Shown piece by piece: positions 26,347 to 45,516 of a stretch of 64,000 nucleotides of DNA. Numbering within the stretch: position 1 is the first letter of the stretch; each line of letters begins with the position of its first letter. The notes beneath the pieces are model-generated. The model saw only the letters and a list, made by a program, of their open reading frames with translations. It did not search any database and was not told where the DNA came from. The DNA comes from an uncultured cyanobacterium (GTDB taxonomy: Bacteria > Cyanobacteriota > Cyanobacteriia > Cyanobacteriales > CAWUOF01): contig CAVUSO010000001.1 of assembly GCA_963744145.1 (NCBI GenBank), forward strand, positions 6,816,001-6,880,000, written 5' to 3'. The position numbers were made by a program, and so were the translations under genes.

Positions 26347-26347
26347 T

Positions 26348-26727: not shown

Positions 26728-26736
26728 GGTATTTGA

Positions 26737-27186: not shown

Positions 27187-27211
27187 TCGATAATTACCTC
27201 CTATAAAAGGA

Positions 27212-27502: not shown

Positions 27503-27536
27503 GATGATATTCTCCCCAAAGTTAATCAACTGTTAC

Positions 27537-27685
27537 TAATAAGTTAACTCAATAATTACCTCCTTTTGAGGGTCATGATCCTGTTCAATAATTCCATCAC
27601 CAATTAGGATATCTCCATCCTACCAAACTGCTGCTTGTCCAGGAGTAATTGCCAACTGAGATTCATCGAAAGCTATTTGTACATT
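27537..27685 (-). pseudogene. mnmA: mnmA 3'-end fragment, copy 2, fused to an xisH-like tail
   Basis: NVQIAFDESQLAITPGQAAVW*DGDILIGDGIIEQ followed by DHDPQKEVIIE; contains an internal stop. Confidence 0.8.
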
Positions 27686-27778
27686 CGGGCGATAATTTAT
27701 CACTTAAACTTTCACCCTTCTTCCAGAATCTCCCAAAATATCCTTAACTGAACCGGATTGAGTCCTAAATTATTAGAA

Positions 27779-28991
27779 CTAGAGCAAACCAAGTCTTTTC
27801 AAAGCATCTTCAGCTGCAAGTTTTTCAGCTTTCTTTTTACTATGATCTTTACCTCTACCATATTCATTACCAGCAACGTAAACTACAGCCGTAAATTCTG
27901 GATCATTATCAGTTCCACCAGAGCGAGTGGTTTTATATTCAGGAGGTTGACGGTTGGGATTACCCGAAAAATTGGGATCTAAAACGACTTGTTGTAACCA
28001 ACCTTTCACATCATCGTTAATTTTAGGTATCGCATCTTGGGTCGTAGGTAAATCGTTGACTACTGCTGCAAAAAAGGGGTTAATAAAATCACTGACTGCT
28101 TCAATTCCTGAATCTAAATAATAAGCACCAATCACTGCTTCAAATACATTACTGAGTAATGAGGTTTTCTGAACGTCCTCCACTCAGCTCTTCACCTCTT
28201 CCCAATCTCATCCATTTTCCCAGCTCTAATTCAGTAGCAAATTTGGCTAATTGAGGAGCATCAACTAAATTTGAACGTAAAACAGTCATTTTTCCTTCTC
28301 TTAAATCTGGATGATATTTATATAAAAAATCACCACTGATAAAAGTGAGTAGAGCATCTCCCAGAAATTCTAACTGTTCATTATCATCACCTTGATTGGG
28401 ATTTTCATATTTATAGGAAGTATGGGTTAAAGCTTGATTGAGCAAATAAGCATTTTCAAAAGGAATACGCTTCAATAGCTGTTCTAGTCTCTCTCTACTC
28501 CGAGCTTCCTCCGCTGAAGAAACAGTTCGAGAACGGTTTTCATGTCTGACTTGCTCTTGAGCTAAAAGACGGAGAACATCTTGTCGCTGTTTTTCGACAT
28601 CTTCCACTTGAGGAGCAGAAATAGATTTCAAGAACCGCAGCACACTATCGATCGCTCTATAGGTATCATCAGTGGAAAAATCAGATTGATGTGCCCACTG
28701 ATTTCGGACTGCAATTAACTCCTTCACTAGAGCTTGATCAGACTGACTCAGATGATTTTTGAAAACTTTGTCCTCCCGATTGACAATAGTTAATAATACC
28801 GACACATCCTCACGAATAATCTCATCGGTTTTTCGTTTCGATTTCTGCTGATTTTTAAAATATGAATTATCTATTTTTTTGATCCAATCTTTGTCATAGA
28901 CTGATGACATTTCTTGGTCAACATATTCATATAAACCTTGTCGCAAATGCTCTAAAGCTTTGCCAATTCTCTCCTTATTATTAATTCCCAT
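27779..28991 (-). CDS. Swt1-like HEPN domain fused to RNase III and dsRBD, split by a 1-nt insertion near 28173
   Basis: RIGKALEHLRQGL...RNQWAH (RxxxxH); ALTHTSY, NEQLEFLGDA; after the shift QKTSLLSNVFEAVIGAYYLDSG and dsRBD SKKKAEKLAA. Confidence 0.87.
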
Positions 28992-29247
28992 TAATTTACT
29001 CCAGCATAGTTGAGTGACTAACTAAATAGATGATCCTGGTTTGCTACGACAAGATTACCTTAACTATACTAATATATCATAAGTAAGCTCATAGTAGTGA
29101 GGCTGACCCGGTTTTAGCCGATCGCCCTGAACTACTTCTAGTTTAGAATATCTTGATCTAGTCTTTACAAATTCTTTATTTATCGATGATATTTTTTACA
29201 GAACAAAAAAACTTTTGCTCGTCTTCTCAGAACCATATTTGATGGTT

Positions 29248-29325
29248 GTCTAGAACAATAGCATCTGTAATAATACTGAGCATAATGGGCTAGTCTAGAG
29301 CAATAGCATCTGTAATAATACGGAG
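29248..29325. repeat. Two 33-bp direct repeats with 45-bp period upstream of a secreted-protein gene
   Basis: gtctagaacaatagcatctgtaataatactgag (29248) and gtctagagcaatagcatctgtaataatacggag (29293). Confidence 0.85.
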
Positions 29326-29394
29326 ACAGATGGCATCAAACATGATGGAACTAAAATAGCTTTGTGGTAGTCTAAAAAAGTGTTGAGTTGAAAT

Positions 29395-29706
29395 ATGCTA
29401 TTTATGTTGAAAATAAGTGGATTAAGTCTCACTATCATTGCTGCTGCTGTTATGCTTCTACCTACTACCGCTCGTGCTGGAGAAGTCCTCGATCGAGAAA
29501 TTGATCAACAACATCGAATCGAGCAAGGAGTACGGAACGGTACTATTAATCGTCAAGAATATCGCAATCTTGAACGCCGCGAGGCATCAATTAACAGACA
29601 ACGACTGTATGATGACCGTCATGGGATGACACCAGCAGAAAGAGAACAGCTCAATCAACGCTTGAATCATCTTTCTCACAGTATCTACGAAGATAAACAC
29701 AATTAA
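29395..29706 (+). CDS. Small secreted protein
   Basis: Signal peptide ending ARA; charged helical body QQHRIEQGVRNG...LNQRLNHLSHSIY. Confidence 0.8.
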   Translation: MLFMLKISGLSLTIIAAAVMLLPTTARAGEVLDREIDQQHRIEQGVRNGTINRQEYRNLERREASINRQRLYDDRHGMTPAEREQLNQRLNHLSHSIYEDKHN

Positions 29707-29752
29707 TTATTTATCTCATTTTTTAAATAGGTTTTTCTGTATATTCGTTAGC

Positions 29753-29795
29753 GATCGCGATCACCTGAGGATATCGGTGATCGCGATCTTTTTTT
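29753..29795 (+). terminator. Rho-independent terminator
   Basis: gatcgcgatcacc / ggtgatcgcgatc 13-bp stem followed by T7. Confidence 0.85.
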
Positions 29796-29837
29796 CAACA
29801 TCGTCAATTAAGTAATGTCCCTCTGCCTAGATCGGGA

Positions 29838-29952
29838 CAAAAAATGGTCAGCTTTCCCTAGCTAACCATTGGAAATTTTTGTTGTGTATTTTCTCTATTG
29901 GTAAAAACCCCAGACTGCACGTTCCCAAACTAGCAGTCAGTTTTAACCATAC
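29838..29952 (-). ncRNA. Candidate small RNA of about 115 nt
   Basis: Minus strand: -10 TAGAAT (29963-29958), internal stem gactgc/gcagtc, terminal stem atggttagct/agctgaccat plus T run; no sizeable ORF. Confidence 0.35.
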
Positions 29953-30047
29953 CTTCTATTCTAATAAAAGTGTAACACCAAACACTAAATTTTTGTTATA
30001 AAACTTAACATATATTGATCAGGAGAGACATAAATTTCCCTAATGAG

Positions 30048-30200
30048 ACGTTAGTTTGACGGACTGAGAAAGCTGAAAAAAAGCTGAGACTAGATTTTAA
30101 GAATTACGTCTCAGCCATGAATAACATTATATCACGTCTCGATATTACCCGAATATTTGATGCCGTAGACTATTTCTGTACATATTTTGAGCGCTATTAG
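30048..30200 (+). mobile_element. IS982-family left end and transposase N-terminal stub
   Basis: End-like acgttagtttgacgga; ORF 30117-30200 MNNIISRLDITRIFDAVDYFCTYFERY*. Confidence 0.65.
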
Positions 30201-30473
30201 CAAATTTTTTGGTCAATTTGCTAGCAGGACTAATTGCTTATACCTAGCAAGAGAAAAAAACAGAACTGGACTTGCTAGGGGCATACGCCCGTACCAAGGA
30301 TTACCAGCTCTACCTCCTGCTATCTTTTAGCTAAGTCAAATTGACTTCTATTTAGGCTGAATCGCCAACAGCTTTAATTTATACTGAACTTACCCCTATA
30401 AAAATGTACTAAATAGACATCAAATGCTTGTATAGAAAGCAATGCCGGATTTTGACCCTGCCCTAATTGTACA

Positions 30474-30978
30474 CAGGCTTTTCGGAGTTTAAAAACTGTG
30501 GATTTAAAAATTAGACCAATTTATCATTATACAACTGCCCGAGTAAAATCTCATGTATTTCTATGTATGTTAGCTTACTATGTAGAATGGCAGATGCGTT
30601 CTCTTTTAGCGCCGATTCTGTTCGATGAAGATGATTGGGAAGATGCTCGACTTAACCAAAAATCTATTATTTGTGCTGCTGTTAGTAATTCAGCTAAAGC
30701 TAAGGCTAGAACTAAGGGCACGAAGGATGATCTACCTGTTCATAGCTTTCAAACTTTGTTAGCCGACTTGGGGACAATTGTGAAAAATAAAATTCAATCA
30801 ACTCTACAAGGTGCAAATTTTGTTTTTGACAAAATTACTGAACCTACTAGAGTCCAACAAAAAGCTCTTGATTTGCTTGGTATTTCCCTAATTTGTACCC
30901 ATTAAATCGATCCTAAAAATCTTTCAAACCCAAGCTAGTCATAGCAGATGGCTTTTGTCAAAGTGGGAAATTCAGGTT
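30474..30978 (+). mobile_element. IS1634-family transposase C-terminal remnant with right end
   Basis: QAFRSLKTVDLKIRPIYH...HVFLCMLAYY...VHSFQTLLADL...QQKALDLLG; end-like gggaaattcagg. Confidence 0.85.
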
Positions 30979-31070
30979 AAAAACTTAGTTGTAGTATGTC
31001 TGAAGTGCGAAAAGTGGGTTAAAAAAGTAGGGACTTCAAAAACTGTTCGCAGCGCTGGTAATTGGCAACC

Positions 31071-32396
31071 CTAATCCTCTTTCTTACAAGCGTCAACCAG
31101 ACAGGACAGTACATTATTTGCAAGAATCTCTATCGTATCCCGACTGATTGAAGGTTCAGAAAATATGAAATTCAAAAGCATTTTTTCCTGAAAGGTTATG
31201 ACGGCAGCACTAAGCATTCCTCCAAACACAGCCAGTGCTGGAACATAGCTGATTTCTTCTAGTTTAAAGGAACCGTAACCTGTAGGAATATTTACTCGCC
31301 CAACGTTAGTTATTACTACTGTTACAGGAACTTTATTAGGTCTGGATATCAGAGACTCAAATATTTTTTTACCCATTAACACTGTACTAAAAATATCGTC
31401 TCGTTCCAACCCAACTTTTAACTGCTGTGTTACATCTTGCGCTAAATCCCAGAATGATGTACTTTTTCGTATACTGTGAAATGAAGTTAAGCTTGAAGCC
31501 AAAACCCCCAATGGTTCATCGCTCACAATCGGTTTTAGACGTCTCCGCAAATCAACATACGAGCGACAACTAACCCGGATTACATCTGTTTTTTTAGAAC
31601 CGGCAATTTTGGGAAATACTACCAACATTAATGCCGCGCATAAAGCACCTTGCATCGTTGCATTTTTTTGTCTACATAAATTTGCAAGTTGTTGAGTCAA
31701 AGTTTCATCTAGCTGTCTGCGAACGAACCCACAATAACGTAAACTAATAGGTACACATTTTTCAAAATCCATTGTTTTCGGTTGGTTCCAGATTAGCTGA
31801 AACTTAAGTTTAAACAAAAATAGTACACCTTTAATTTTACCTTTAATCCCTTTCATCGATTCAGGTAGTAATTCTTCAAGTGATGGAAGTGCAGGTAAGC
31901 TATCAATCTTGGTAATTTGTTCGCCCTCCACAAGTTTTTGACAGTAAGTAAGTAGCTCTGAATGCAGTCGAATGCTTGATAATCCATCAATTATAGCGTG
32001 ATGTATTGTGGTAATTAGATAACTGACACTATTCTCATCATTAGGACAAACAAAAACAGATCGGATTAGGCATCGGCTGCTATCAATTTTTTCGTTTAGC
32101 TCTGATAAAACTACATCATTCCACTGCTCGCTTTGTACATTAGTCACAACACGCAAAGGAATTTTTTGCGTCCCTTCAGTTTCAAACTGAAGACTATCTA
32201 ACTCACCGACAATTCGAGAATTAAGACGTGGATGACGACACTGAATAATGTCTAGAGATTGTCTAATAATTTCTTGCTTGAGATGTCCTTGAATCCGACT
32301 GATTGTCACTACATTATAAGCACCAGCACGGCGATTATAAACTTCCATCACCTGCTCAAGTGGAATAAGTTTTCTGTTGTCAGCCATCAATTTCAT
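31071..32396 (-). CDS. Stand-alone condensation-fold acyltransferase (PapA5/alcohol acyltransferase-like)
   Basis: RHPRLNSRI, HHAIIDG (HHxxxDG), VDLRRRL, TNVG; RBS gaggagg before ATG 32396. Confidence 0.85.
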   Translation of the reverse strand: MKLMADNRKLIPLEQVMEVYNRRAGAYNVVTISRIQGHLKQEIIRQSLDIIQCRHPRLNSRIVGELDSLQFETEGTQKIPLRVVTNVQSEQWNDVVLSELNEKIDSSRCLIRSVFVCPNDENSVSYLITTIHHAIIDGLSSIRLHSELLTYCQKLVEGEQITKIDSLPALPSLEELLPESMKGIKGKIKGVLFLFKLKFQLIWNQPKTMDFEKCVPISLRYCGFVRRQLDETLTQQLANLCRQKNATMQGALCAALMLVVFPKIAGSKKTDVIRVSCRSYVDLRRRLKPIVSDEPLGVLASSLTSFHSIRKSTSFWDLAQDVTQQLKVGLERDDIFSTVLMGKKIFESLISRPNKVPVTVVITNVGRVNIPTGYGSFKLEEISYVPALAVFGGMLSAAVITFQEKMLLNFIFSEPSISRDTIEILANNVLSCLVDACKKED

Positions 32397-32663
32397 TACC
32401 TCCTCGCCTGATCCGATAGGTATTCTCTTAGTCCCCATTCATTATAGCTGTATCCGCGTAAGGATTTAGGTTGCAAGGAGTTAATTTAGTAAACTTGCGT
32501 ATTGCAACGCCCATACAGCTCTAATGGTCTGGGAAACGTCCCGATTTTTGATCACCTCCAGTGTTTTTCAGGGACTACCCTCTTGTCACCCTCTGAAGAG
32601 TTTTATGATAGAGTTGAATGATCGCCATAACCTGAAATCTGGATCAAAATAAGAAGTTTTATC

Positions 32664-34003
32664 ATGAAATTATCTAATGGACCAAAAACGCCAGCATTTT
32701 GGCAGACCCTACAATGGGTTTTTAATCCTCTAGAGTCTATGGATACCTGCTTTCAACGCTATGGTGATATGTTCACCTTTTACGTGGGCAAAAAAACACC
32801 CTGCGTATTTCTTGCACACCCCCAGGCTGTTAAGCAGGTTTTTACTGCTGATGTTGATCAGTTTGACAGCGGTTCATCAAACCAGATTGTCAAGCCTTTG
32901 ATGGGTGAAAATTCCCTACTGTTAATGGATGGCGCAACTCACCGACGAATGCGCCATCTATTAACACCTCCGTTTCACAGTGAACAGGTACGGACATACG
33001 GGCAACTAATTAGCGATATTGCTGATCAAGTCACGAATCAGTTGCTGATCGGTAAAACATTCTCTGTGCGTGAGGTGATGCAAGAGATTTCTCTGCAGGT
33101 CATAGTGCAAACAATATTTGGTCTGTATGAGGGCGATCGCTATCAAAAGCTTATTTCCCTTCTGTCTTCCATGCTTGAGGGAACGAGTTCTGTCTGGAAG
33201 AGTAGCTTCCTATTCTTTAAAATACTCCAGCAAAATTTAGGATTGTGGGGTCCTGGGGACAATTCCTGCACATAAGGCAGCAAATTAGCGAACTACTCTA
33301 TGCTGAGATCCGGGAACGTCGCGAGAATCTAGACCATTCTGGCACAGATGTCCTTACTTTACTAATATTTGTTCGTGATGAAAATGGTCAACCATTGACC
33401 GATGCTGACTTACACGATCAGTTACTGACACTCTTGGTAGCTGGACACGAGACTACAGCCACTTCTTTAGCTTGGGCAATGTACTCGATTCACCAAGTAC
33501 CTGGGGTACTTGATAAATTGCTACAAGAACTAGGTAATCTGCCAGACAATCCAGATCCCACCAGCATTGCTAAATTACCTTATCTCTCAGCCGTTTGTCA
33601 GGAAACTTTGAGAATGTACCCAATTGTTTTTCACACCTTCGGACGGGTTGTTAAATCACCTATAGAGATTATGGGTTTCCTGTTTGAACCAGGTGTTATC
33701 CTAGCTCCTTGTATCTATTTAATTCATCGACGCAAGGATATATATCCGGAACCGGAACAGTTTAAGCCAGAGCGATTTTTAGAACGACAATTTTCACCTT
33801 ATGAGTATTTACCTTTTGGAGGTGGTAGCCGTCGCTGTCTGGGTATAACATTAGCACAATTTGAAATGAAAATTGTGCTGGCTAAGATATTATTGAAATG
33901 GCAATTAGCGCTAGCTGATAGATATATGGTAAAACCAATACGGCGTGGATTAACACTAGGAGTAACTGGTGGTGTTCCTATGGTAGCTATCAGTAAGCGT
34001 TAG
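32664..34003 (+). CDS. Cytochrome P450 (CYP110-like), split by a 1-nt deletion near 33252
   Basis: AGHETTA, ETLR, FKPERF, PFGGGSRRCLG; adding one base restores WGPWGQF. Confidence 0.9.
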
Positions 34004-34081
34004 AATTCAATTCAAACTGTAAATTATCTTACTTGCAATGGTTATTTTGCTCTAAATACTTATCTTTGGCTCTAAAGGTTT

Positions 34082-37000
34082 ATGCTTAATCAAAAAGTGG
34101 GATGCTCCCCTAGCAGCGAGAATGAAATAGAAAGAATAGCAATTATTGGCATTGGTTGTCGTTTTCCAGGCAGTGCCAATAGTCCCGAAAGTTTCTGGAA
34201 ACTACTGCGAAATGGCATAGATGCTATTACTGAAGTGCCAGCGGATCGCTGGGATTTAGACACTTTTTATGATCCAGATCCAGCCAAACCTGGGAAGATA
34301 AAAACGCGATGGGGTGGCTTCATCGAAAAAATTGACGAATTTGATGCCAATTTTTTTGGAATTTCCCCTCGTGAAGCATCTCGCATAGACCCGCAGCAAC
34401 GACTGTTGTTAGAAGTTGCATGGGAGGCGCTAGAAGATGGGGGACAGATGCCTGAACAGCTAACTGGTACAAATACTGGCGTGTTTATTGGTATCTATAC
34501 TCATGATTATGAAGCCATTCAGCTTTCTTCCCAGAATCGAGATTTGATTGACAGCTACACCAATACCGGCTGGCCTACGTGTTTTGCTGCCAACCGCATT
34601 TCCTATTTCTTCGACTTTCGCGGTCCCTCTATTGCTCTCGACACCGCATGTTCCTCATCTCTGGTTGCCGTACATTTGGCTTGCAACAGCATCTGGAATG
34701 GAGAGTCTGCTATGGCTTTGGCAGGTGGTGTAAATATCATCCTTAGACCTGAGCCTAACATTGGTTTGAGCGTCGCGTCAATGCTTGCTCCAGATGGGCG
34801 TTGTAAAACCTTTGATGCTAAGGCTAACGGTTTTGTAAGGAGTGAAGGGGCAGGAATCGTTGTCTTGAAACTATTATCCCAGGCGATCGCAGATGGCGAT
34901 CCGATTTATGCCGTGATTCGAGGCAGTGCCGTTAATCAAGACGGACGCACTAATGGTATGACAGTTCCCAGTCGGGAAGCCCAAGAAGCAATGCTCTGGG
35001 AAGTCTATCAGCGAGCTGGGATATCACCTGGACAAGTGCAGTACATTGAAACTCATGGCACAGGAACTCCCGTCGGAGATCCAATTGAAGCGAATGCACT
35101 GGGCAATGTACTGGTAACTGATCGTGCTCCAAATAATTATTGTCATATTGGCTCAGTAAAAACTAACATTGGACATTTAGAAACAGCATCAGGTATTGCT
35201 GGATTAATCAAGGTGGCACTGTCGCTGAAACATCAGGAAATTCCACCTAATTTGAATTTTTTAGAACCCAATCCCCAAATTAATTTTGAAAAATTACAGT
35301 TGCAAGTGCAACAAAAGTTAGAAACTTGGACTAATAATGAGCATTGTCCACGTATAGCCGGAGTAAATTCATTCGGGTTGGGAGGTACTAATGCTCATAC
35401 TGTTTTAGAAGAAGCCCCGCAGGTTAGCCCGCCTGTCCAAAATCGCCAAAATGTGAGTGCCAGTTTGTTAACGCTGTCTGCTCATAGTCCCGAAGCCCTT
35501 CAGACAGTGGTGCATAAATACCTTGAATTATTAGCTGGAACTGCTGGCAATGAAGTTTCGCTTCAGAATATTTGCTATACAGCCAGTTTGCGCCGAGGAC
35601 ATCACGATCACCGTTTGGTGCTTGTAGCTCATTCTCAGAAACAGTTAATTAAACAACTGGAAGCATTTCTGGTGGGTGTAAACCTACCGGGTATGTCTGC
35701 TGGTCGCAAAATTTTTAATAAACAGACGAAACTTGCCTTTGTTTTCTCTGGTATGGGTCAACAGTGGTGGGCAATGGGACGGCAACTGTGGCAAGAAGAA
35801 CCTGTATTTCAGGCAGTTATAAAACAGTGTGATGCGTTGTTGTTACAAGCCGCGAACTGGTCTTTAGTGGAAGAATTGACCGCATCAGAAGAGACTTCGC
35901 GTATTAATGAAACCGAAATAGCGCAACCGATTATCTTTGCGGTACAAGTCGCTCTAGCTGCCTTGTATCGTTCCTGGGGCATTTGTCCTGACGTTATTGT
36001 CGGTCATAGCGTTGGTGAAGTAGCAGCTGCTCATGTGGCTGGAGTTTTGAGCATTGAAGATGCTATCCAGGTGATTTTCCACCGCAGTCGCGTACAAGCA
36101 AAAATTGCTGGAACAGGAAAGATGTTAGCCGTTGGTTTGTCGTCAGAGGAGGCTGAACGCAAGTTAACAGGATACGAAGATCGCGTTTCCATAGCAGCTA
36201 TCAACAGCTCCAGATCCGTTACTATTTCTGGAGATAGCACGGCCTTAGAAGAAATTGCCAAATCCTTAGAAGCGCAACAGATTTTCAATCAATTTCTACG
36301 AGTCGAATTACCTTATCACAGCCCATTTATAGAGCCTTTAAAGCCAGATTTAGTGGAGTCGCTGCAACTCATTAATCCTCAAAAAGCTACTATTCTCCTG
36401 TTTTCCACTGTCACCGGCCAACAAGTTGAAGGTTCGGAACTGGATGCCACCTACTGGGGACAAAATATGAGGAATCCTGTTTTGTTTGCAGCAGCAATCG
36501 ATAAACTTGTGCGAGCAGGTTATGATCTCTTCTTGGAAATCAGCGCTCGTCCAGTTCTAGCCAGTTCAGTATCTGAGTCTTTTTCATCGCAAAACATACA
36601 AGGGACAGTAGTTCCTTCCTTACGGCAGGGCGAACCAGGACGAGCCACGATGCTGGAGGTGATGGGCAAACTTTACACCTTGGGATACTCCATGGACTGG
36701 CACGGACTTTATCCTGAAGGTGGTCAATTTGTGCGGCTACCGTCCTATCCTTGGCAGCGAGAGCGGTTTTGGAACGAATCGGAAGCATCTAAGGATTCGC
36801 GGTTAGCAGCCCCAATCCACCCTCTGTTAGGTCGCTCTGTGCCTGGGCTGCATCCTTCTTGGCAGCTAGAAGATCCGCTACGCTTTTCTTATCTTAAAGA
36901 CCACCAAATACAAAGTTTAACGGTTTTTCCAGGTGCCGGATATGTGGAAATGGCATTAGCTGCCACTGCTGCAAATTTTGGCAAAAACGAGGGATGGTTA

Positions 37001-40000
37001 CTTAAAGATATCAAAATCCAAAAAATGCTAGTGCTGTCGGACAAGCCGCGATCACTTATGCAAGTGCTTTTAAGCCCTGGTGAGAATGAAGAATGGTTAT
37101 TTGAAATTGCCAGCCGTCCTGAAAGCGAGAAAGATTCTTGGACAGTCCATGCCGTCGGCACACTGAGTCGTGAGAGCAGTCTTCCTGTACTAACATCAAA
37201 TTTGAGTGAAGCTCAAAAACAATGTCTAACAAGTGGATCGGTACAAGACCTCTACCGCAATTTCCTAATCATCGGGTTAGAATATGGTAAGTACTTTCAA
37301 GGGATTCAACAATTCTGGCTAGGTGATGAAGAAGCACTAGCTCAGATTGAAGTAAAACTAGATGTCAAAGATTATTGGCTTCACCCTGCCATCCTGGATG
37401 CCTGTTTCCAAACCTTGTTGCTCGCAGTACCAGGAGGACTAACCTCTACCTACCTACCAGTTAGCATAAAACAAGTAAAAATCTACGGTCAGGTAAAAAG
37501 CCCCTGCTTTGCTCATGCTATTTTGACCCAGAATGAGCAAAAAACGATTGAAGGCAATATCTTGGTGTTTGATGCCGTTGGCAACATTTTTGTGGAAATT
37601 CAAGGACTTTGCGGTCAATCTCTGGGAGAAGAAAAGAAAACACAATCCAGCAATATTGATGATTATTTCTACGAGGAATACTGGCAGGAGAAGCAATCGC
37701 CTTTTCCAAATACAAATATCATAGCAGGCCATATCCTTGCTCAAATATCGCGCTGGCAGTCAGAATTAAATTCAATCCAACAAGTTGAGGAATTTTCCTT
37801 AGAAATAGACAAACTTTGCGCTGCTTATGTGCGGAAAGCTTTTGCCAAACTAGGCTTTCAATCTTCGTTTGCAGAGGAGATAGATGTTCCCTCTCTCATG
37901 CAACAACTGAAGATTGCGCCACAACATCATCGTTTTGTGAATCGTCTATGGTCGATTGCGAAAAATACAGATTCTCTCGCCCCTGGTACTTATCCCCAGA
38001 GTCTATTTGAAAAGATTTGGAACAGCCTGCCTTTCTACCATTTGGAACTTACTATCCTCAAGCGAATTGGAGAATATCCGCTAGCGGATATTCTCCAAAA
38101 CCCAAGTTTAGCACTGCAAATTCTCTTTCAAGACGATATATTAAAAACTTGGTATGAAGTTGCGATTACTAATCGACCTCACTTACAAATGATTGCGGAA
38201 GCTTTATCTCAAGCACTAAAAAATATTTCCACCAAACGAGTCATCCGTATCTTAGAAGTAGGAGCAGGAACAGGTGCGCTCACTTCATATCTACTACCAC
38301 TACTGACTGGATATCAAGTTGAATATGTATTTACTGACATATCAGCTTCATTCTTCGTTAAAGCTAAGGAGCGATTCCGTGAGTTTTCATTTGTTAAATA
38401 TAAAACTCTCGACTTAGAAAAAGATGCTATTTCGCAAGGATATCAAAAGCATTACTTTGATATCATATTTGCCTATGATGCGCTACACACTACCAAGGAT
38501 TTGTCTGAGACATTACAACATTTACAATCCTTGCTAGTTCCTGGTGGGTGGTTAGCTGCCCTCGAGGTAACTGATTGTCCGATTTGGGTCGATATCGTAT
38601 TTGGATGTCTCGAAGGATGGTGGAGATTTGTGGATACCGATCTCCGACCGTCTCATGCAACTTTATCTCGCAAAGCATGGGAAAACCTCTTGCAAACAGT
38701 CGGATTTGTAAATATCTCAACGATTGCTAACAAACCAGAAGGTGAATCTGTTCATTCTATTCTTTTGGCACAAAAACTAGAGATAATTCCTGTTTATAAC
38801 CTAGAAAAAGATAATTCGTGGGTCATCTTTACGGATTCTCAAGGTTTAGGTAATGAGCTAGAAAATATTTTACACCAAGCCGAGCAGAAAATATTTGTTG
38901 TTTCTCGTGGAGAAAAGTTTCAAAAAAGCGATGAAACTCATTTAATACTCAGTAGCGATCACGTTAGTGATATGCAAACACTGCTAAAGGAGCTGCCTGA
39001 AGTAAGAAATATCGTTCATTTGTGGAGCTTGGACGATCCAGAATCATCTCTGATGAGTGTTGTCAACCTTGTAAAAGCCCTAATTGAGACTAATTTGTCT
39101 GAAAAAACGCATATTTGGCTAGTGACGAAGGGGGCGCAAATGGAGTGTACATTTCCAGAACAATCGCCGTTAGTGGGACTGGGAAGGACAATCGTGAACG
39201 AATGCCCAGAACTTAAGTTCACTATGGTGGATCTCGAGTCAGAAAATTCTGCTCGTACACTCTTTGATGCAATGGGGTTTGACAACAGTGAACCAGAAAT
39301 GGCATTTCGTCAGGGAGTTTGTTATGTTCCTCGACTCATTCCCACAAAGAAGGAAGAGCTTTCCCGGTCTGTTTCCTTGGATGCTCAGGAAGCATTTCGT
39401 CTAGAGATGCAAGAGCCTGGGCTAATAGATCGGTTGACATTTTGTGCTACAAAGCGAAAAAAACCGGCTTCCGGACAAGTAGAGGTTAAGGTCTTCGCTT
39501 CTGGTGTGAGCTTTAATGATGTCGTGTTCGCTCTAGGTATGCATCCAGACCCAGCTTTTCACCAGTCTTCTTCTGACATTGTCTATTCTCTTGGTAAAGA
39601 ATGTGCAGGAAAGGTTGTTGCAGTGGGTGAAGGAGTAAATGAATTTGCCGTTGGAGATGATGTAATTGCAATGGGCAGTTACTGCTTTGGCTCCTTTGTG
39701 ACCACAAGCATCGATCTGGTAATTCACAAACCAGCTCACCTAACGTATGAGGAAGCAGCGAGTATTCCAGGAATCTTTCTTACTGTTTACTACGCTTTCC
39801 ATCATTTGGCAAGGATATTACCAGGAGAGCGAGTTCTAATTCACTCTGCCGCTGGAGGTGTTGGTCAGGCAGCGATTCAGTTGGCCCAAATGATGGGAGC
39901 CGAGATTTTTGCCACGGTGGGAACATCCGAAAAACGGGCTTTTTTGCGTTACCAAGGTGTCAAACACATCATGGACTCACACACTTTATCTTGGGCTGAA

Positions 40001-42205
40001 GAGATTATGAAAATTACCAGCGGGAAAGGTGTTGATGTTGTACTCAATTCTTTGGCAGGAGAAGCCATTTCTAAAGGAATTTCGGTTCTGTCTCATTCCG
40101 GTCGTTTTTTAGAAATTGGGATTCGGGATATTTTTAACAATAGCCAAATTGGTCTTTTGCCTTTTCAGCGAAATTTATCTTTCTTCGCGATCGATCTGTA
40201 TCGCATAGCGAAAGTTCGCACGCCATTCATCAAGTCTATGTTACGAGATGTAATAGCACTATTTGAAAGCAAGCAATTAAAACCTGTTCCTATTAATCCA
40301 TTTCCGCTTTCAGATGCAGTAAACGCTTTCCGCTTTATGACACGGGGCAAGCACATCGGAAAAATTGTGCTTAATTTTCAATCGCCCCAGGAAGTTTTAT
40401 TAAATCCATCGTCTGAATTGTTCTTATCGGATGCCACTTACCTAATCACAGGAGGGTTGGGCGGTTTCGGGTTAGCATTAGTGGAATGGATGGTAGAGAA
40501 AGGAGCGCGGTATTTTGTTTTAGTAGGAAGAAGTGGTATTTGTAATAAACAAGTACATCGCACCATTCAAGGAGTAGAAAACAAAGGAGCCAAGGTTGTC
40601 GTAGCACAGGGAGATGTCAGCCAACAGCATCAGTTAGCCAGCATATTAAACAATATTGCTCAACAAAATATGCCCCCATTGCGAGGCATTTTTCATCTAG
40701 CTATGGTTCTGGACGATGATTTTATAGTCCGGTTGAATTCGGAACGCTTCCAGCAGGTTATGGCTCCAAAAGCAACTGGAGCTTGGAATTTGCACAAGCT
40801 TACTGAACAAATGCCACTGGACTTTTTTGTTCTCTTCTCCTCGTTGTCTGCATTGGCTGGTAATCCACAGCAGGCTAACTATGTAGCTGCTAGTGTCTTT
40901 CTCGATGCTCTTGCTCACCATCGTCGTCTGCAAGGGCTTGCAGGTATTTCCATCAATTGGGGAGTTTTAGCTGAAGTAGGGGCTGTTGCACGTTCCTCAA
41001 GACGTGCCAGAGTCCAAGCTGAGAAAGGATGGCTATCCTTTTCGCCACAACAAGCATTTGCGGGGCTGGAATATATCTTACGTCAGAATCCAGTCCAACA
41101 ATGTTTTATGAATATTGACTGGCAGGCTATTACTAATATTTGGGGTAAACGGGAACGATTTTCTCATTTATGTCAGGAGTTTACGGTCGAAGTTGGGGCT
41201 GCGACTGCGATCGCTAATGAGAATCAAGAAAGTTTGGAGGTACGACTTGGCAAACAGGTTGCGGTGCTTTTAGGAACTTTGGCATCCAAAATTGACATTC
41301 ACACACCACTCAACCGTCTGGGACTTGATTCTTTAATGACCTTTGAACTGAAAACATGGTTAGAAAAAAATGCTGGAATCAACGTGTCTCAACTTTACCT
41401 AATGGAAGGAGCAACTGTAGCATTACTTGCGGAAAAAATAACCCCGGATGCGTCTGAAAAGAAAGGCTGGATTGTACGTTTCCGTCCCAATCACCAGGCA
41501 CGTCTTCGCCTATTTTGCTTCCCCTATGGAGCTGGTGTTGCGTCAATTTTTGAATCTTGGCCCGATTATTTGCCGCCTGATGTAGAAGTGTGTGGAATTC
41601 AGCTTCCTGGGCGAGAAACTCTCAACGGGATACCACTTATTTCTGATATGGATCATCTTTTGCAAAGATGGTTGCCAGAGTTACTGCCACTTCTTGATGT
41701 CCCCTTCGTATTTTATGGTCATAGCCTGGGTGGATTGCTTAGTTTTGAAATGGCTCGTTGTCTTCGCAAACAGCATCAACTTAGTCCAGTTCATTTATTT
41801 GTAGGTGGAACCCCTTCACCACAAGTCTTTCCCTCTGCTTTGAAAAAAATCTTTGGGCATGAAAAATTACTAATTGAATCTATGCCTGACGAACAATGGA
41901 TGCAGATCCTTGTCAAGTCAAAAATTTTGAACAAACCCACTCTATCAATGGCATCAATCGCTCGTGCTGATATTCTGCTGGTCAGGAATGCTTATGAGCA
42001 AGAAGCGCCATTCGATTTTCCGATTACTGCATTTATTGGAGAAAAAGATGAAGTGCTCACGAATAATCAGGTAATTTTAGCTTGGGGGGAACAAACTACA
42101 AAGAGATTTTCATTGCAAACTGTTCCAGGAAATCACTTGTTTATAGACACTAATAAGGAATTGTTTTTGCCAATTTTATCAGCCGCATTAACCGATGTCT
42201 CATAA
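34082..42205 (+). CDS. Single-module type I PKS: KS-AT-DH-cMT-ER-KR-ACP-TE
   Basis: KS DTACSSS/HGTGT/NIGH; AT GHSVG/PYHS; DH DHQIQSLTVFP and HPAILDACFQ; MT LEVGAGTG; ER HSAAGGVG; KR TGGLGGFG/LDD/NY; ACP GLDSL; TE GHSLG/GNH. Confidence 0.96.
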   Translation: MLNQKVGCSPSSENEIERIAIIGIGCRFPGSANSPESFWKLLRNGIDAITEVPADRWDLDTFYDPDPAKPGKIKTRWGGFIEKIDEFDANFFGISPREASRIDPQQRLLLEVAWEALEDGGQMPEQLTGTNTGVFIGIYTHDYEAIQLSSQNRDLIDSYTNTGWPTCFAANRISYFFDFRGPSIALDTACSSSLVAVHLACNSIWNGESAMALAGGVNIILRPEPNIGLSVASMLAPDGRCKTFDAKANGFVRSEGAGIVVLKLLSQAIADGDPIYAVIRGSAVNQDGRTNGMTVPSREAQEAMLWEVYQRAGISPGQVQYIETHGTGTPVGDPIEANALGNVLVTDRAPNNYCHIGSVKTNIGHLETASGIAGLIKVALSLKHQEIPPNLNFLEPNPQINFEKLQLQVQQKLETWTNNEHCPRIAGVNSFGLGGTNAHTVLEEAPQVSPPVQNRQNVSASLLTLSAHSPEALQTVVHKYLELLAGTAGNEVSLQNICYTASLRRGHHDHRLVLVAHSQKQLIKQLEAFLVGVNLPGMSAGRKIFNKQTKLAFVFSGMGQQWWAMGRQLWQEEPVFQAVIKQCDALLLQAANWSLVEELTASEETSRINETEIAQPIIFAVQVALAALYRSWGICPDVIVGHSVGEVAAAHVAGVLSIEDAIQVIFHRSRVQAKIAGTGKMLAVGLSSEEAERKLTGYEDRVSIAAINSSRSVTISGDSTALEEIAKSLEAQQIFNQFLRVELPYHSPFIEPLKPDLVESLQLINPQKATILLFSTVTGQQVEGSELDATYWGQNMRNPVLFAAAIDKLVRAGYDLFLEISARPVLASSVSESFSSQNIQGTVVPSLRQGEPGRATMLEVMGKLYTLGYSMDWHGLYPEGGQFVRLPSYPWQRERFWNESEASKDSRLAAPIHPLLGRSVPGLHPSWQLEDPLRFSYLKDHQIQSLTVFPGAGYVEMALAATAANFGKNEGWLLKDIKIQKMLVLSDKPRSLMQVLLSPGENEEWLFEIASRPESEKDSWTVHAVGTLSRESSLPVLTSNLSEAQKQCLTSGSVQDLYRNFLIIGLEYGKYFQGIQQFWLGDEEALAQIEVKLDVKDYWLHPAILDACFQTLLLAVPGGLTSTYLPVSIKQVKIYGQVKSPCFAHAILTQNEQKTIEGNILVFDAVGNIFVEIQGLCGQSLGEEKKTQSSNIDDYFYEEYWQEKQSPFPNTNIIAGHILAQISRWQSELNSIQQVEEFSLEIDKLCAAYVRKAFAKLGFQSSFAEEIDVPSLMQQLKIAPQHHRFVNRLWSIAKNTDSLAPGTYPQSLFEKIWNSLPFYHLELTILKRIGEYPLADILQNPSLALQILFQDDILKTWYEVAITNRPHLQMIAEALSQALKNISTKRVIRILEVGAGTGALTSYLLPLLTGYQVEYVFTDISASFFVKAKERFREFSFVKYKTLDLEKDAISQGYQKHYFDIIFAYDALHTTKDLSETLQHLQSLLVPGGWLAALEVTDCPIWVDIVFGCLEGWWRFVDTDLRPSHATLSRKAWENLLQTVGFVNISTIANKPEGESVHSILLAQKLEIIPVYNLEKDNSWVIFTDSQGLGNELENILHQAEQKIFVVSRGEKFQKSDETHLILSSDHVSDMQTLLKELPEVRNIVHLWSLDDPESSLMSVVNLVKALIETNLSEKTHIWLVTKGAQMECTFPEQSPLVGLGRTIVNECPELKFTMVDLESENSARTLFDAMGFDNSEPEMAFRQGVCYVPRLIPTKKEELSRSVSLDAQEAFRLEMQEPGLIDRLTFCATKRKKPASGQVEVKVFASGVSFNDVVFALGMHPDPAFHQSSSDIVYSLGKECAGKVVAVGEGVNEFAVGDDVIAMGSYCFGSFVTTSIDLVIHKPAHLTYEEAASIPGIFLTVYYAFHHLARILPGERVLIHSAAGGVGQAAIQLAQMMGAEIFATVGTSEKRAFLRYQGVKHIMDSHTLSWAEEIMKITSGKGVDVVLNSLAGEAISKGISVLSHSGRFLEIGIRDIFNNSQIGLLPFQRNLSFFAIDLYRIAKVRTPFIKSMLRDVIALFESKQLKPVPINPFPLSDAVNAFRFMTRGKHIGKIVLNFQSPQEVLLNPSSELFLSDATYLITGGLGGFGLALVEWMVEKGARYFVLVGRSGICNKQVHRTIQGVENKGAKVVVAQGDVSQQHQLASILNNIAQQNMPPLRGIFHLAMVLDDDFIVRLNSERFQQVMAPKATGAWNLHKLTEQMPLDFFVLFSSLSALAGNPQQANYVAASVFLDALAHHRRLQGLAGISINWGVLAEVGAVARSSRRARVQAEKGWLSFSPQQAFAGLEYILRQNPVQQCFMNIDWQAITNIWGKRERFSHLCQEFTVEVGAATAIANENQESLEVRLGKQVAVLLGTLASKIDIHTPLNRLGLDSLMTFELKTWLEKNAGINVSQLYLMEGATVALLAEKITPDASEKKGWIVRFRPNHQARLRLFCFPYGAGVASIFESWPDYLPPDVEVCGIQLPGRETLNGIPLISDMDHLLQRWLPELLPLLDVPFVFYGHSLGGLLSFEMARCLRKQHQLSPVHLFVGGTPSPQVFPSALKKIFGHEKLLIESMPDEQWMQILVKSKILNKPTLSMASIARADILLVRNAYEQEAPFDFPITAFIGEKDEVLTNNQVILAWGEQTTKRFSLQTVPGNHLFIDTNKELFLPILSAALTDVS

Positions 42206-42273
42206 ATTGAGAAACTGCTATTGATACTGACTCTGAAACTTTCTGGAGCATTTAAATCGTCTGAGACAAGCTG

Positions 42274-42310
42274 TTTTCTTGGCAATAAATTAAGTTTATT
42301 GCCAAGAAAA
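42274..42310. terminator. Perfect 16-bp hairpin downstream of the PKS, possible terminator
   Basis: ttttcttggcaataaa-ttaag-tttattgccaagaaaa. Confidence 0.6.
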
Positions 42311-42463
42311 ACAAGGGCCGTTTTCTTGAGGATAAAATTATGATACCTAGATGGGTATTAAAGATGGAAAATTTAACTCTAACTCTTCGTCTAAATCTCC
42401 GTCTATGAGGGAGCGAGGCGTAGCTAAAATAATCGTAAATTGCTAATAATAAATCGTAAAAAG

Positions 42464-43402
42464 ATGACAAAAAAGATGGAAAAAAAGGCCAATAAAGAAC
42501 GTCAAACCGCCCAAGATTATACTGAGAAATTAGGGGCAATTGTGGAATTAGATATGATATCTATTCCTGGTGGTAAATTTTGGATGGGGACTCCGAAGGA
42601 AGAAATTGAAAAACTTTGTAAGGAATATAAATTAGATTATTTTAGAACAGAAAGTCCTCAACACCAAGTTACTGTGCCGGCGTTCTTTATGGGTAAATAC
42701 CAAGTCACCCAGGCACAATGGAAAGTTATAGCAGAACAAACCGATCTTAAAGTACAAATTGATTTAGATCCTGACCCATCTCATTTTAAAGAACCTTACG
42801 AAGAATACGATAGATGGACTAGACCAGTAGAACAAGTTAATTGGTATGAAATGAAAGAATTTTGCGATCGTCTTTTCAAGCTAACAAAAAGAGAATATCG
42901 CTTACCCACAGAAGCAGAATGGGAGTATGCTTGTAGGGCAGTTATTAGCGATCAGCCAGTAGCAGAATGGAATCAGAACTATCATCAACCGTTTCATTTT
43001 GGTGAAACCATCACTACAGAATTAGCTAATTATCGTGGAACTGATGTGGAGTATGAAGGTAAAGTTATACCCGGTCATTATGGAAGCGGAATAAAAGGAG
43101 AATATAGAAAAAAAACCACTCCAGTTGGCTATTTTAAGAGAACCAATGCTTTTGGACTTTACGATATGCACGCTAACATTTGGGAATGGTGCGAAGATGA
43201 TTGGCACGATAATTATGAGGGGGCATCTGCAGATGGTAGTGCTTGGTTAACAGGTGAAAAAAATGTTACAAAAGTAATACGAGGCGGTTCGTGGTTCTAT
43301 AATCCGGCGTACTGCCGCTGTGCCTTTCGCTTCGACTACAACCCCGATTCCCGCTACTACACTCTTGGGTTTCGAGTTGTGAGCGTGGCTGCGAGGACTT
43401 AA
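42464..43402 (+). CDS. FGE-sulfatase/CLec-fold protein with a DGR-type variable C-terminus
   Basis: IPGGKFWMG, YQVTQAQW, RLPTEAEWEYACRA, NAFGLYDMHANIWEWCED, RGGSW...GFRVV. Confidence 0.9.
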   Translation: MTKKMEKKANKERQTAQDYTEKLGAIVELDMISIPGGKFWMGTPKEEIEKLCKEYKLDYFRTESPQHQVTVPAFFMGKYQVTQAQWKVIAEQTDLKVQIDLDPDPSHFKEPYEEYDRWTRPVEQVNWYEMKEFCDRLFKLTKREYRLPTEAEWEYACRAVISDQPVAEWNQNYHQPFHFGETITTELANYRGTDVEYEGKVIPGHYGSGIKGEYRKKTTPVGYFKRTNAFGLYDMHANIWEWCEDDWHDNYEGASADGSAWLTGEKNVTKVIRGGSWFYNPAYCRCAFRFDYNPDSRYYTLGFRVVSVAART

Positions 43403-43785
43403 TCTGAACTTCCCCCTGCAAATACACCTCTAATGACGAACCAGGACCGGCACAACTGGGTGCAAAGGTATATAAAAATAACTTAGTGAGAAATTAATGC
43501 TACTGTGAGAAATTTATTAAGTGCAACTTCATAGAAAAATGGTATAAGTATTGCTGAATATATTTTTCTGAGAATTCTGATTAAGATTTTACAATCAATT
43601 AAAAAAGTGAAGTTAGAAAGTATAGCTAATGCTCTCCCGTTACCGATTATTTTTTAAAGTAGAAGAAAAAAGTGCAGCGATTTCTATCATGCGCAAGAGC
43701 TATACGCCCGTACAATCTATCCTTACCAGCTCTATCTTTTAACTTCGTCAAACTGACTTTAATGAGACGTTCATCCCATCCCCCA

Positions 43786-45516
43786 TTATGTCTTGATTTG
43801 CTCGGCAGCATCCTGGGGTCGTCCCCAAATCACCCGCTCTTGTTTGTAGACTACCATCCCAGGTTTAGCACCTTTAGGTTTATAGACATATTTAGGTTGA
43901 GTATAAATAACCGGGACTTGATCACTTTGACGGGCACGACTATAAAAAGCACTCATATTTGCCGCAAATTGTAAATCCGCGTCATCAGCAACACTACCCG
44001 GTTCTAAACGTAATAATAGATGACTACCTGGTATTTCCTGAGTATGAAACCAAAGATCGTAATCCCCAGCTAGACGAAAGGTAAGTTGATCATTTTGACG
44101 ATTATTGCGACCAATTAACAATTCAAACCCACTGGGCGATCGCAGTCGATAAAAATCTGTCCCAGTTACATCACCTGGGCTCCGATAGTCTGGCTCCTCT
44201 AAATATTTTTGTCCAATTAACTCTTCGCGAATTTCCCCTAAAGCTTGCAAATCCGCAGGTTCTCGATACAACTCCAACTGAGCAATGGCAATTTCCACCT
44301 GTTCTAAATAATCAATTTCCCCTTGGACTTGAGCGAGTAAAGGTGCCACCGCAATCCGGGCCCGTTTCAGTTTTTGGTGACGACGATAGAGAGACTGGGC
44401 ATTTTGCACCGCATTCTTTTCCACATCCAAAGGAATCGTGACGGGTTGACCTGTTTCAAAATCAGCCAGAGCGATCGCACTCATCCCGGGTTTCCACACC
44501 TGGAGATGAGCCATTAACAAATCTCCATATTGACGATACTGATCAGCTTCATCCGACTGAGACAAACGTTCCTGAAAATTCCGAGCTTTCACATTTAATT
44601 TCGCCAAAACACTACTAATTTTTTGACTAAGTTGATGGCGTAATTGTTTAAATACTTGTTGATTCAGTTCATCTGTATAATAACGATTAAGTAATACTTG
44701 CACTGATGGAGCCGGATCAATTAGACCCCAATCCAGCATAGTATATCCAGTCGCAGTCAATCCTGGCTGAAATTTACCTTGCTCTAAAGCTTGTAACCAT
44801 TCTTGCCACCGTTGAAACAACTTTTCCCAATCGGTATAATTTAAACTAGCTGTAGATTGGGCTGGATCAAGACCAACTGATTGAATCATGGATTGGACAA
44901 TTGCCGAACTTAAACCACGATAAGTTTTTAACAATTGACTCAATAAAGTCCCCGGTACTAAACTAATCCGCTCTTGCCATCTAGCTTGAGATTCACTTAA
45001 AGTGGGAATCGGATTAGTCAATGCTGGAGGAACTTCATAGGGTTGACCAGTCAAAATTGGACGAACGCTAGACTGCTGGCTATTAACTTGATGGGCGACG
45101 CTAATAATAATATTTTCGTGATTAACCAGAATAACATTGCTATATTTACTCATAACTTCTACATACAAATGCCAAAGGGCTGGTTCTCCTGGACGTTTGG
45201 CAAATTGTAAGTCGAGCACTCTTTCCCAGGGAGCGATCGCGCTGATTGATACCAAAGCTAACTTGGATAATTGATGTCTTAATTGGTCGCTAAAAGTAAA
45301 TGTATCGGGCAGACGAGGAGGGGGATTACCAATACAAATACGAGCAGCTTGAGGGTGCCAAGAAATATCTAACCAACCGCGACGATCCATCGTGCGTAAC
45401 CCTAAAGCAATGGTGTAGCGATCGCGTTGATACACCTGTTCTAAACGAGATGGTAACCAACTAGCACGTAGTTCCCCACTACTAGCCATCATGGTAGTAA
45501 AATCAACAGGTTGCAT
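43786..45516 (-). CDS. rqcH: NFACT/RqcH (FbpA) ribosome quality-control protein
   Basis: YVEVMSKYSN, NAQSLY, GRNNRQND, WFHTQEIPGSH, KPKGAKPGMV. Confidence 0.9.
   Translation of the reverse strand: MQPVDFTTMMASSGELRASWLPSRLEQVYQRDRYTIALGLRTMDRRGWLDISWHPQAARICIGNPPPRLPDTFTFSDQLRHQLSKLALVSISAIAPWERVLDLQFAKRPGEPALWHLYVEVMSKYSNVILVNHENIIISVAHQVNSQQSSVRPILTGQPYEVPPALTNPIPTLSESQARWQERISLVPGTLLSQLLKTYRGLSSAIVQSMIQSVGLDPAQSTASLNYTDWEKLFQRWQEWLQALEQGKFQPGLTATGYTMLDWGLIDPAPSVQVLLNRYYTDELNQQVFKQLRHQLSQKISSVLAKLNVKARNFQERLSQSDEADQYRQYGDLLMAHLQVWKPGMSAIALADFETGQPVTIPLDVEKNAVQNAQSLYRRHQKLKRARIAVAPLLAQVQGEIDYLEQVEIAIAQLELYREPADLQALGEIREELIGQKYLEEPDYRSPGDVTGTDFYRLRSPSGFELLIGRNNRQNDQLTFRLAGDYDLWFHTQEIPGSHLLLRLEPGSVADDADLQFAANMSAFYSRARQSDQVPVIYTQPKYVYKPKGAKPGMVVYKQERVIWGRPQDAAEQIKT

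Follow-up and report, generated by a model that had tools for sequence, protein, structure and literature searches.

The DNA analysed here is a stretch of 64,000 nucleotides from an uncultured cyanobacterium (G000:C1:6816001-6880000, hereafter the window), which is part of a 7.70 Mb genome of 4 contigs that is 96.3% complete. The open reading frames (ORFs) and their Pfam matches define a cluster of three genes at positions 31071-42205 of the window, encoding a PapA-type acyltransferase, a cytochrome P450 and a type I polyketide synthase (PKS) of 2707 aa. The features of the cluster are listed below, with the source of each assignment in brackets.

31071..32438, minus strand: PapA-family (condensation-fold) acyltransferase, 455 aa, with HHAIIDG at residues 146-152 (Pfam)
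32439..32663, no strand: divergent intergenic region between the PapA-like gene and the P450 gene, 225 bp (ORF coordinates)
32664..34003, plus strand: cytochrome P450, in two ORFs, 32664-33275 and 33245-34003 (Pfam p450 halves)
34082..42205, plus strand: one-module type I PKS, 2707 aa (Pfam, motifs, family comparison, ketosynthase tree)
Domains of the PKS: ketosynthase (KS) 34130-35416, acyltransferase (AT) 35738-36682, dehydratase (DH) 36818-37639, C-methyltransferase (cMT) 38198-38719, pseudo-ketoreductase 38822-39265
Domains of the PKS, continued: enoyl reductase (ER) 39470-40372, ketoreductase (KR) 40433-40972, acyl carrier protein (ACP) 41216-41464, thioesterase (TE) 41507-42151

The original prediction, made from the sequence alone, had described a P450 gene co-oriented with the PKS gene and an HHxxxDG acyltransferase gene placed head-to-head with them. 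The ORFs lie exactly where it had put them, and Pfam agrees with its description. In the divergent intergenic region, promoter-like matches were found at no more than chance level.

Judged by its domains and relatives, the PKS is a self-contained, one-module and fully reducing synthase that belongs to a sparse, uncharacterised family with the architecture KS-AT(xPYHS)-DH-cMT-ER-KR-ACP, with or without a TE. Pfam gives the domain order KS, AT, DH, Methyltransf_12, ER (ADH_zinc_N), KR, PP-binding and Thioesterase. The KS begins at residue 17, and a loading module is absent. The KS carries DTACSSS (residue 187), HGTGT (325) and NIGH (362), and the AT carries GHSVG (641), FHRSR (666) and LPYHS (743). 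The DH has a His at 941 (HQIQSLTVFP) and DACFQ at 1106, and the cMT has ILEVGAGTG (1390) and LHTT (1468). Further on, GGVG (1925), GGLGGFG (2124), LDD (2210) and YVAAS (2267) are found, followed by GLDSL (2414) in the ACP and GHSLG (2546) and GNH (2683) in the TE. All of the catalytic motifs that were sought are therefore present, and the frame of 8.1 kb is open. This bears out the full domain set with largely intact motifs, and the missing loading module, that had first been described for this gene, with one deviant residue in the DH that is taken up below.

Among solved structures, the KS-AT part scores highest against 7zma, a 'putative polyketide synthase' (847 bits), for which the best stretch covers residues 19-554 of the query only. 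The best full-length match is the cyanobacterial CurL (789 bits, E 6.6e-236), and lower scores are obtained for PikAI (711 bits), DEBS (679), MAS (661), LovB (536), PsoA (506) and animal fatty acid synthase (FAS; ~410). The solved structure nearest to the cMT is CurJ (E 3.7e-59, 204 bits), in which the S-adenosylmethionine (SAM) motif and the LH(A/T)T and E positions line up with those of the window protein; the cMT of LovB scores 114 bits. Apart from 7zma, the closest solved sequence relatives are thus CurL and CurJ, which are cis-AT modules of the curacin pathway. Fungal highly reducing PKSs, such as LovB, share with the window PKS the order KS-AT-DH-cMT-ER-KR-ACP in one module without a loading domain, and this likeness had been pointed out in the original prediction. 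The domain order stands, but the affinity in sequence lies with the cyanobacterial cis-AT proteins. Since LovB scores below CurL for the KS-AT and below CurJ for the cMT, the likeness is one of architecture and not of descent. A fungal origin of the PKS, for which PsoA was also considered, is rejected on the same scores.

The relatives of the PKS were collected with residues 900-1760, the DH-cMT part, as the query. In that part, relatives reach at most 39% identity, the nearest of them are cyanobacterial, and the cluster names of the one-module relatives hold no functional label. The PKS is collinear with cyanobacterial proteins of 2567-2891 aa, of which 15 were compared, including P0126-P0149 and three paralogues of Scytonema sp. 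PCC 10023. For the 12 closest of these 15 proteins, the identity per domain is 67-74% for the KS, 62-72% for the AT, 37-43% for the DH, 35-41% for the cMT, 46-55% for the ER, 50-58% for the KR and, where it is matched, 37-44% for the TE. The TE is present in some members of the family (about 2810-2830 aa) and absent in others (about 2560-2600 aa). Over the KS-AT, the Scytonema paralogues (L112 5790-14246, 2818 aa; L113 773-9244, 2823 aa; L114 7549-15312, 2587 aa) are 68-70% identical to the window protein. The family is sparse, as only one of the 400 other sampled genomes of the phylum (G388, 67%) has a KS-AT with at least 60% identity.

For the comparison of motifs and the tree, rows were taken from the KS-containing proteins among 119 DH-cMT homologues, together with four locus proteins and the window, and KS alignments of fewer than 380 residues were dropped. 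At the position of the AT motif, xP(Y/F)HS (VPYH, VPFH or IPFH) is found in 44 of the 71 one-module KS-first rows, and HAFH is found in 22 of the 52 rows of multi-module, shortened or extended proteins. By this comparison, LPYHS can be regarded as a hallmark of the family. Its presence in place of HAFH or YASH had been reported correctly, but it is not atypical, as had been supposed.

In an unrooted FastTree tree of 124 KS rows, the window KS falls in a clade of 73 rows with a support of 98, which consists of 64 one-module rows, 8 others and the window, and within it in a subclade of 29 (support 96). The multi-module KSs are mostly found in a separate clade (support 95), in which 34 of the 40 rows are from multi-module, shortened or extended proteins, including one named McyD in its source. 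The one-module cMT PKS clade spans cyanobacteria, soil Alphaproteobacteria and other bacteria. A search of the whole genome with PF00109 gave 5 matches, of which one is the KS of a type I PKS and 4 belong to open frames 182-374 aa long. As this search brought up a single type I KS, the PKS has no assembly line to join, and the possibility that it is the stray terminal module of such a line is rejected. The KS phylogeny and the search for modules elsewhere, both proposed as checks at the outset, thus place the KS in a one-module clade and find no other type I modules. CurJ and CurL differ in this respect, as they act once in multi-protein lines, whereas the cluster PKS is the only type I module found and its KS lies in the one-module clade.

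The surroundings of the relatives were also inspected. Each of the three Scytonema paralogues lies amid unrelated genes, and no PKS, fatty acyl-AMP ligase (FAAL), stand-alone ACP, P450 or PapA gene was found next to them. In total, partner genes are missing alongside all four relatives examined (the three from Scytonema and the one from G388). A gene for a phosphopantetheinyl transferase is present in the genome of the window. The sole type I KS found, the one-module KS clade and the relatives that stand alone together favour an iterative or self-sufficient action of the PKS. The original prediction had called the enzyme probably iterative; these observations point that way without being proof.

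A single extension is a possible alternative, though one on the unlikely side. Here, the KS would take a chain from the host FAS, either as acyl-ACP or activated by a FAAL, and add one malonyl unit that is methylated and fully reduced, after which the TE would release a 2-methyl acid that is two carbons longer and is then modified by the P450 and the acyltransferase. The nearest solved relatives are in line with such a role, as the KS-AT scores best with modular cis-AT PKSs (CurL 789, PikAI 711 and DEBS 679 bits) and the cMT with CurJ. The window KS, on the other hand, belongs to a clade apart from the multi-module KSs. A supply of activated chains could come from three FAAL-like genes in the genome, which are 54-56% identical to a Nostoc FAAL-ACP, and FAAL-containing clusters with PapA homologues are found in Nostoc favosum and Nostoc sp. 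NIES-4103. However, none of the three FAAL-like genes is near the cluster, no FAAL, further ACP or loading domain was found by Pfam outside the cluster PKS in the 64-kb window, and none of these was seen beside the three Scytonema paralogues. Repeated use of the single module is the preferred reading of the PKS in what follows.

Two synthases with the shorter order KS-AT-ACP-TE were also observed. In a metagenome-assembled genome of Waterburya (L115 4792-10641), a KS-AT-ACP-TE protein with 57% identity to the window KS-AT is found beside a type III PKS and an ICMT-family methyltransferase, a set reminiscent of alkylresorcinol-type loci. The other case is metagenome locus L128, where a KS-AT-ACP-TE gene of similar kind is convergent to a PapA homologue.

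The two ORFs in the middle of the cluster together encode one P450, of which the N half matches positions 6-200 and the C half positions 208-448 of the 462 positions of the Pfam p450 model. In the assembly, the frame of the P450 shifts from 0 to 2 at about position 33253. The motifs of the I-helix (AGHETT), the ExxR element (ETLR) and the heme-binding region (FGGGSRRCLG) are intact, and the nearest solved structures are CYP120A1, CYP4B1, CYP3A4 and P450 BM3. In the one search made for sequencing runs that share sequence with the stretch, no RNA run was listed, and run X2, with small shares only (4 pieces), was left aside. The window was compared with a public DNA run, X1, which contains 91% of the sampled words of the stretch. 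Its short-read contigs were compared over positions 29000-44000, where 30 of 30 bins were covered. Aside from repeats at about 30052-30171 and 43648-43672, only two differences were found, namely A>G at 41339 and an extra T behind 33253, the latter in one contig (depth 6.3/6.3). With this extra T, both halves of the P450 share one frame. The indel in the P450 that the original prediction had seen is thus absent from X1. X1 is possibly the source sample of the genome itself and is for that reason not independent proof of an intact P450. Near-identical DNA does carry an unbroken allele, so that the break goes back to a mistake in the assembly or to a polymorphism of very recent date and does not point to decay.

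The assembly contains further split genes, in line with the first of these readings. The HEPN_Swt1/RNase III/dsRBD gene at 27779-28991 (minus strand), to the left of the positions compared with X1, consists of two overlapping ORFs, 28149-28991 and 27779-28183, and its split is probably a further one-base assembly error or frameshift. Likewise, a FabF/FabB-like ketosynthase is encoded in two abutting frames of 186 and 182 aa at G000:C1:453670-454403, which could be due to an assembly indel. A second P450 gene was noted at G000:C1:3616688-3621393, about 1.6 kb from a FAAL-like gene with an in-frame TGA; by its position it is unrelated to the cluster.

The PapA-like protein matches the Pfam families PapA_C (79.5 bits, cut-off 30) and Condensation (41.3 bits). 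Its residues 36-450 align over the full length with residues 39-449 of 8s6l_A, a 'phthiocerol/phthiodiolone dimycocerosyl transferase' (E 8.5e-27), and H146, H147 and D151 of the HHAIIDG motif are invariant in 20 aligned relatives. Against the NCBIfam PapA5 models NF006787 and NF006790, the scores are 81.2 vs. 396 (subfamily) and 48.2 vs. 716 (equivalog) bits. By these matches, the window protein can be assigned to the PapA_C family as an enzyme that is not a PapA5 orthologue. Its relatives form 393 database clusters at E <= 0.001, the best of which show 63-67% identity. Matches were obtained in 80 of the 401 genomes of the phylum sample and are strong in about 35, and no PapA relative above 55% identity was found in the metagenome scan. 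The neighbourhoods of PapA homologues were studied in 80 genome loci and 25 metagenome loci. The genome loci come from an alignment-based scan; a scan of the genome contigs with the single PapA-like sequence gave no match.

PapA homologues are found in several settings. Of the 80 genome loci, 39 have genes nearby for a stand-alone ACP and for a protein of 625 aa that bears a TubC_N docking domain, and in 32-33 of the 80 a PfaD-type ER and genes for a KS with a chain-length factor (KS-CLF) are present as well, which defines a Nostocales cluster that resembles polyunsaturated fatty acid (PUFA) synthases. This conserved cluster (L082, e.g., 10-17894, and 37 further loci) encodes, in this sequence, a KR-DH protein, KS-CLF, a PfaD-type ER, a 433-aa protein, the stand-alone ACP, the PapA-like acyltransferase, the 625-aa TubC_N protein, a glycosyltransferase and an ABC transporter. 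Its PapA homologues form a clade of 38 rows with a support of 100. About 16 of the 80 genome loci lie among housekeeping genes, and in 7 of the 80 some type I PKS is found within 10 kb of the PapA homologue.

An orthologue of the window P450 adjoins the PapA homologue in 6 of the 80 genome loci and 2 of the 25 metagenome loci (8/105). Over the C half, these P450 orthologues are 54-60% identical to the window protein in seven loci and 34% identical in L052. The window protein belongs, in the tree of PapA homologues, to a clade of 8 with a support of 97. Four of the 7 others in this clade are adjacent to a P450, two have type I PKSs of another kind as neighbours and one is on a contig of 4.4 kb. 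The head-to-head layout of P450 and PapA genes in the window is also seen elsewhere (L029; Oscillatoria sp. PCC 10802). In Okeania hirsuta, a six-KS PKS with a terminal reductase domain is followed, after its last module, by two P450 genes and a PapA gene. Found alone or by unrelated PKSs, the P450-PapA pair behaves as a portable tailoring cassette.

The composition of the cluster differs from that of the rest of the genome. Its GC content of 42.5% ranks in the top 3.4% of 685 same-size genome windows (39.4 +/- 1.7%), and its tetranucleotide distance is in the top 4.2%. HIP1 sites are sparse, with 3 in the cluster and 51 in the whole window. The resulting density of 0.27 per kb is in the lowest 2.2% of the 685 windows (1.01 +/- 0.38), and a low density is common to all three genes. 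The sparsity of HIP1, estimated earlier at about three sites in 11 kb, and the debris of insertion sequences (ISs) seen earlier to the left of the cluster were both confirmed. The features around the cluster are the following.

25876..44135: HIP1-poor stretch of 18.3 kb, with an FGE-sulfatase-domain gene and genes of defence or toxin-antitoxin type besides the cluster and the IS debris
30048..30345, no strand: IS982-family remnant, both element ends without the transposase (genomic repeat matches)
30456..30905, plus strand: C-terminal fragment of an IS1634-family transposase (NCBIfam NF033559)
42440-43402, plus strand: FGE-sulfatase-domain gene (Pfam)

The HIP1-poor stretch has just 4 HIP1 sites, and Pfam also identifies in it an AAA_21 ATPase, fragments of XisI and of a nucleotidyltransferase, and the HEPN-RNase III gene. 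The ORF at 30456-30905 corresponds to positions 387-482 of the 483 positions of the IS1634 transposase model (E 2.1e-15), and its score is under the NCBIfam cut-off because it is a fragment. Positions 30048-30345 resemble genomic repeats at 80-87% identity and represent two repeat ends. In the copy at G000:C1:6694368-6695446, the same ends enclose an ORF for an IS982 transposase (NF033520, 190 bits). The remnant was identified only through this fuller copy, as Pfam and NCBIfam scans of the short ORFs in 28990-31075 gave no IS982 match. Copies of the ends are located at G000:C1:6694368, 3335784, 6154746, 927097 and 5874621, which suggests that the repeated IS982-family ends without a transposase are derivatives resembling miniature inverted-repeat transposable elements. 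The FGE-sulfatase-domain gene was considered as a conserved member of the cluster and rejected, as it has no counterpart in the 105 loci with PapA homologues.

The single same-family genome in the collection (92% complete) has a match only to the NFACT gene, which lies outside the cluster, to its right. Together with the outlying GC, HIP1 and tetranucleotide values and the IS remnants, this agrees with the horizontal acquisition that had been proposed, and the cluster looks foreign in origin. Since all three genes have their nearest relatives in cyanobacteria, any transfer probably took place within the phylum.

Taken together, the gene content suggests that the cluster makes a methyl-branched fatty acid that is then hydroxylated and esterified, a reading to which we give an even chance. 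In this pathway, the ACP of the PKS would be activated by the phosphopantetheinyl transferase of the genome. The AT would load malonyl units and the KS would extend the chain, with the single module being reused like a fatty acid synthase. In some or all rounds, the cMT would add an alpha-methyl group derived from SAM to the beta-keto intermediate, and the KR (LDD type), DH and ER would fully reduce each unit. After several rounds, the TE would free a saturated methyl-branched fatty acid. The P450 could then hydroxylate this chain or another lipid, and the PapA-type enzyme could esterify the hydroxyl group with an acyl thioester to give a wax-ester- or estolide-like lipid. Here we infer the iteration, the chain length, the number of methyl groups, the substrate of the P450, the acyl donor and acceptor, and the one common product of the three genes.

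Several observations weigh against this pathway. The KS tree, besides being unrooted and made with FastTree only, has rows that were picked by DH-cMT similarity, with no proven iterative enzyme among them. In addition, the DH motif of the PKS has a Ser where a Gly is found in 17 of 17 readable family members (18 were compared, and the motif could not be located in one). This Ser and the long branch of the window PKS in its KS clade make some loss of function possible. With regard to the neighbourhoods, the PKS family and a PapA homologue occur together in none of the 80 genome loci and none of the 25 metagenome loci. As the trio is unique, its gene neighbourhood gives no independent support for a product shared by the PKS and the cassette. 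The relatives of the PKS, namely the three Scytonema paralogues and the one in G388 (67% over KS-AT, without a PapA match in that genome), stand without the cassette, and in Oscillatoria sp. PCC 10802, whose genome carries the cassette, no KS-AT of a type I PKS was found at E <= 1e-30. The original prediction had made its case depend on finding the three genes together in other genomes; for this PKS family they are found together in 0 of the 105 loci, and only the P450-PapA pair recurs.

These neighbourhood counts, and the IS982 and IS1634 remnants directly to the left, would also be expected if the PKS and the cassette were chance neighbours that were joined in a variable, IS-ridden island and have no common substrate. 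The PKS would then make its own fatty acid, like its stand-alone relatives, and the cassette would modify ordinary cell lipids, as it would have to in genomes that lack a PKS. We consider this unlikely, as the P450 and PKS genes lie on one strand with a gap of only 78 bp, in which no terminator-like site was seen, and all three genes share the low HIP1 density. Moreover, relatives of the cassette are repeatedly found by PKSs, as in two of the seven other loci of the PapA subclade and in Okeania, where P450-P450-PapA directly follows the PKS. On these grounds, a shared pathway seems to us more likely than chance adjacency.

It is highly improbable that the cluster is a decaying remnant, in which acquired genes are being lost and no product is made. 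The frameshift of the P450 in the assembly could be taken as a sign of decay, but it is absent from X1, which otherwise differs in one base in the cluster, and the motifs of the P450 are intact. The Ser in the DH, the long end branches of the PKS and of the PapA protein in their respective trees and the adjacent IS debris could be read in the same way; however, the 8.1-kb frame of the PKS is open and all of its checked catalytic motifs are present. 

The mycobacterial wax system of mycocerosic acid synthase (MAS) and PapA5, the PDIM pathway, also combines a single fully reducing type I module for methyl-branched chains with an HHxxxDG acyltransferase of the PapA_C family. By analogy, the cluster could be its cyanobacterial counterpart built from different parts, in which mycocerosate-like acids with multiple methyl branches would be made iteratively, methylated by SAM and passed into ester lipids, although we regard this as quite unlikely. 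The methyl groups in the cluster are predicted to come from SAM through the cMT and not from methylmalonyl-CoA, and its AT has LPYHS and not YASH, which is the motif of methylmalonyl-type ATs. MAS is not known to have a TE and is unloaded by PapA5, whereas the cluster PKS carries its own TE. Direct off-loading of the ACP in the manner of PapA5 is therefore unnecessary, which weakens the mycobacterial analogy at its weakest link and is a further point against the proposed pathway. Phthiocerol (pps) genes are absent, given that the genome search located a single KS of a type I PKS. If the cluster is such a counterpart, the esters produced with the P450-PapA cassette would be lipids of a new class, in the envelope or for storage. 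The wider, uncharacterised one-module cMT clade, of which Scytonema has three members and soil Alphaproteobacteria have many, would then serve bacteria in general as a way to branch fatty acids by SAM-dependent methylation.

SupA, from the Sup group of sponge-symbiont PKSs, has the domain order KS-AT-DH-MT-ER-KR-ACP. By their description, the Sup and Swf proteins resemble the window PKS as small one-module type I PKSs or FASs outside assembly lines, and they differ from it in that the window PKS has a TE and adjoins a P450 and an acyltransferase. In the sections available to us, the Sup and Swf PKSs of sponge symbionts are proposed, without proof, to make methyl-branched fatty acids (PMC3908369, PMC4245539), and the Sup proteins are described as sponge-specific (PMC4245539, PMC9864124). 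Uncharacterised one-module KS clades have also been noted in metagenomes in the available part of a further study (PMC10308959). The one-module cMT PKS family is not described in the part of Calteau et al. 2014 (PMC4247773) that was available. Neither this PKS family nor the PapA-like enzymes of cyanobacteria nor the xPYHS motif turned up in a literature search, in which the supplements of papers fell outside the scope. This is in keeping with the first impression that the cluster matches no characterised cyanobacterial pathway.

One-module, fully reducing and C-methylating bacterial synthases are common in databases, and no member with a known product was found in the literature. The lone copy in this genome, where no other type I PKS was found, makes it a clean test case for iteration and for the programming of methylation. 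The PapA-type family is widespread in cyanobacteria, where it occurs with a P450 alone, by type I PKSs and in the PUFA-synthase-like Nostocales cluster, settings that hint at a so far unexplored part of lipid chemistry in cyanobacteria. In practice, the cluster is one orphan gene cluster among many.

Two further regions of the window were noted. At 20502-24330, the urease genes ureD, ureA, ureB and ureC are found, with a DJ-1/PfpI-family gene (21686-22267) inserted between ureA and ureB. At 58088-63980 (minus strand), a DUF1156 protein of 952 aa is encoded by the side of DUF499-type ORFs that look split (61361-62713 and 62562-63980), with PIN-domain and small genes alongside, and this region may be a defence island.

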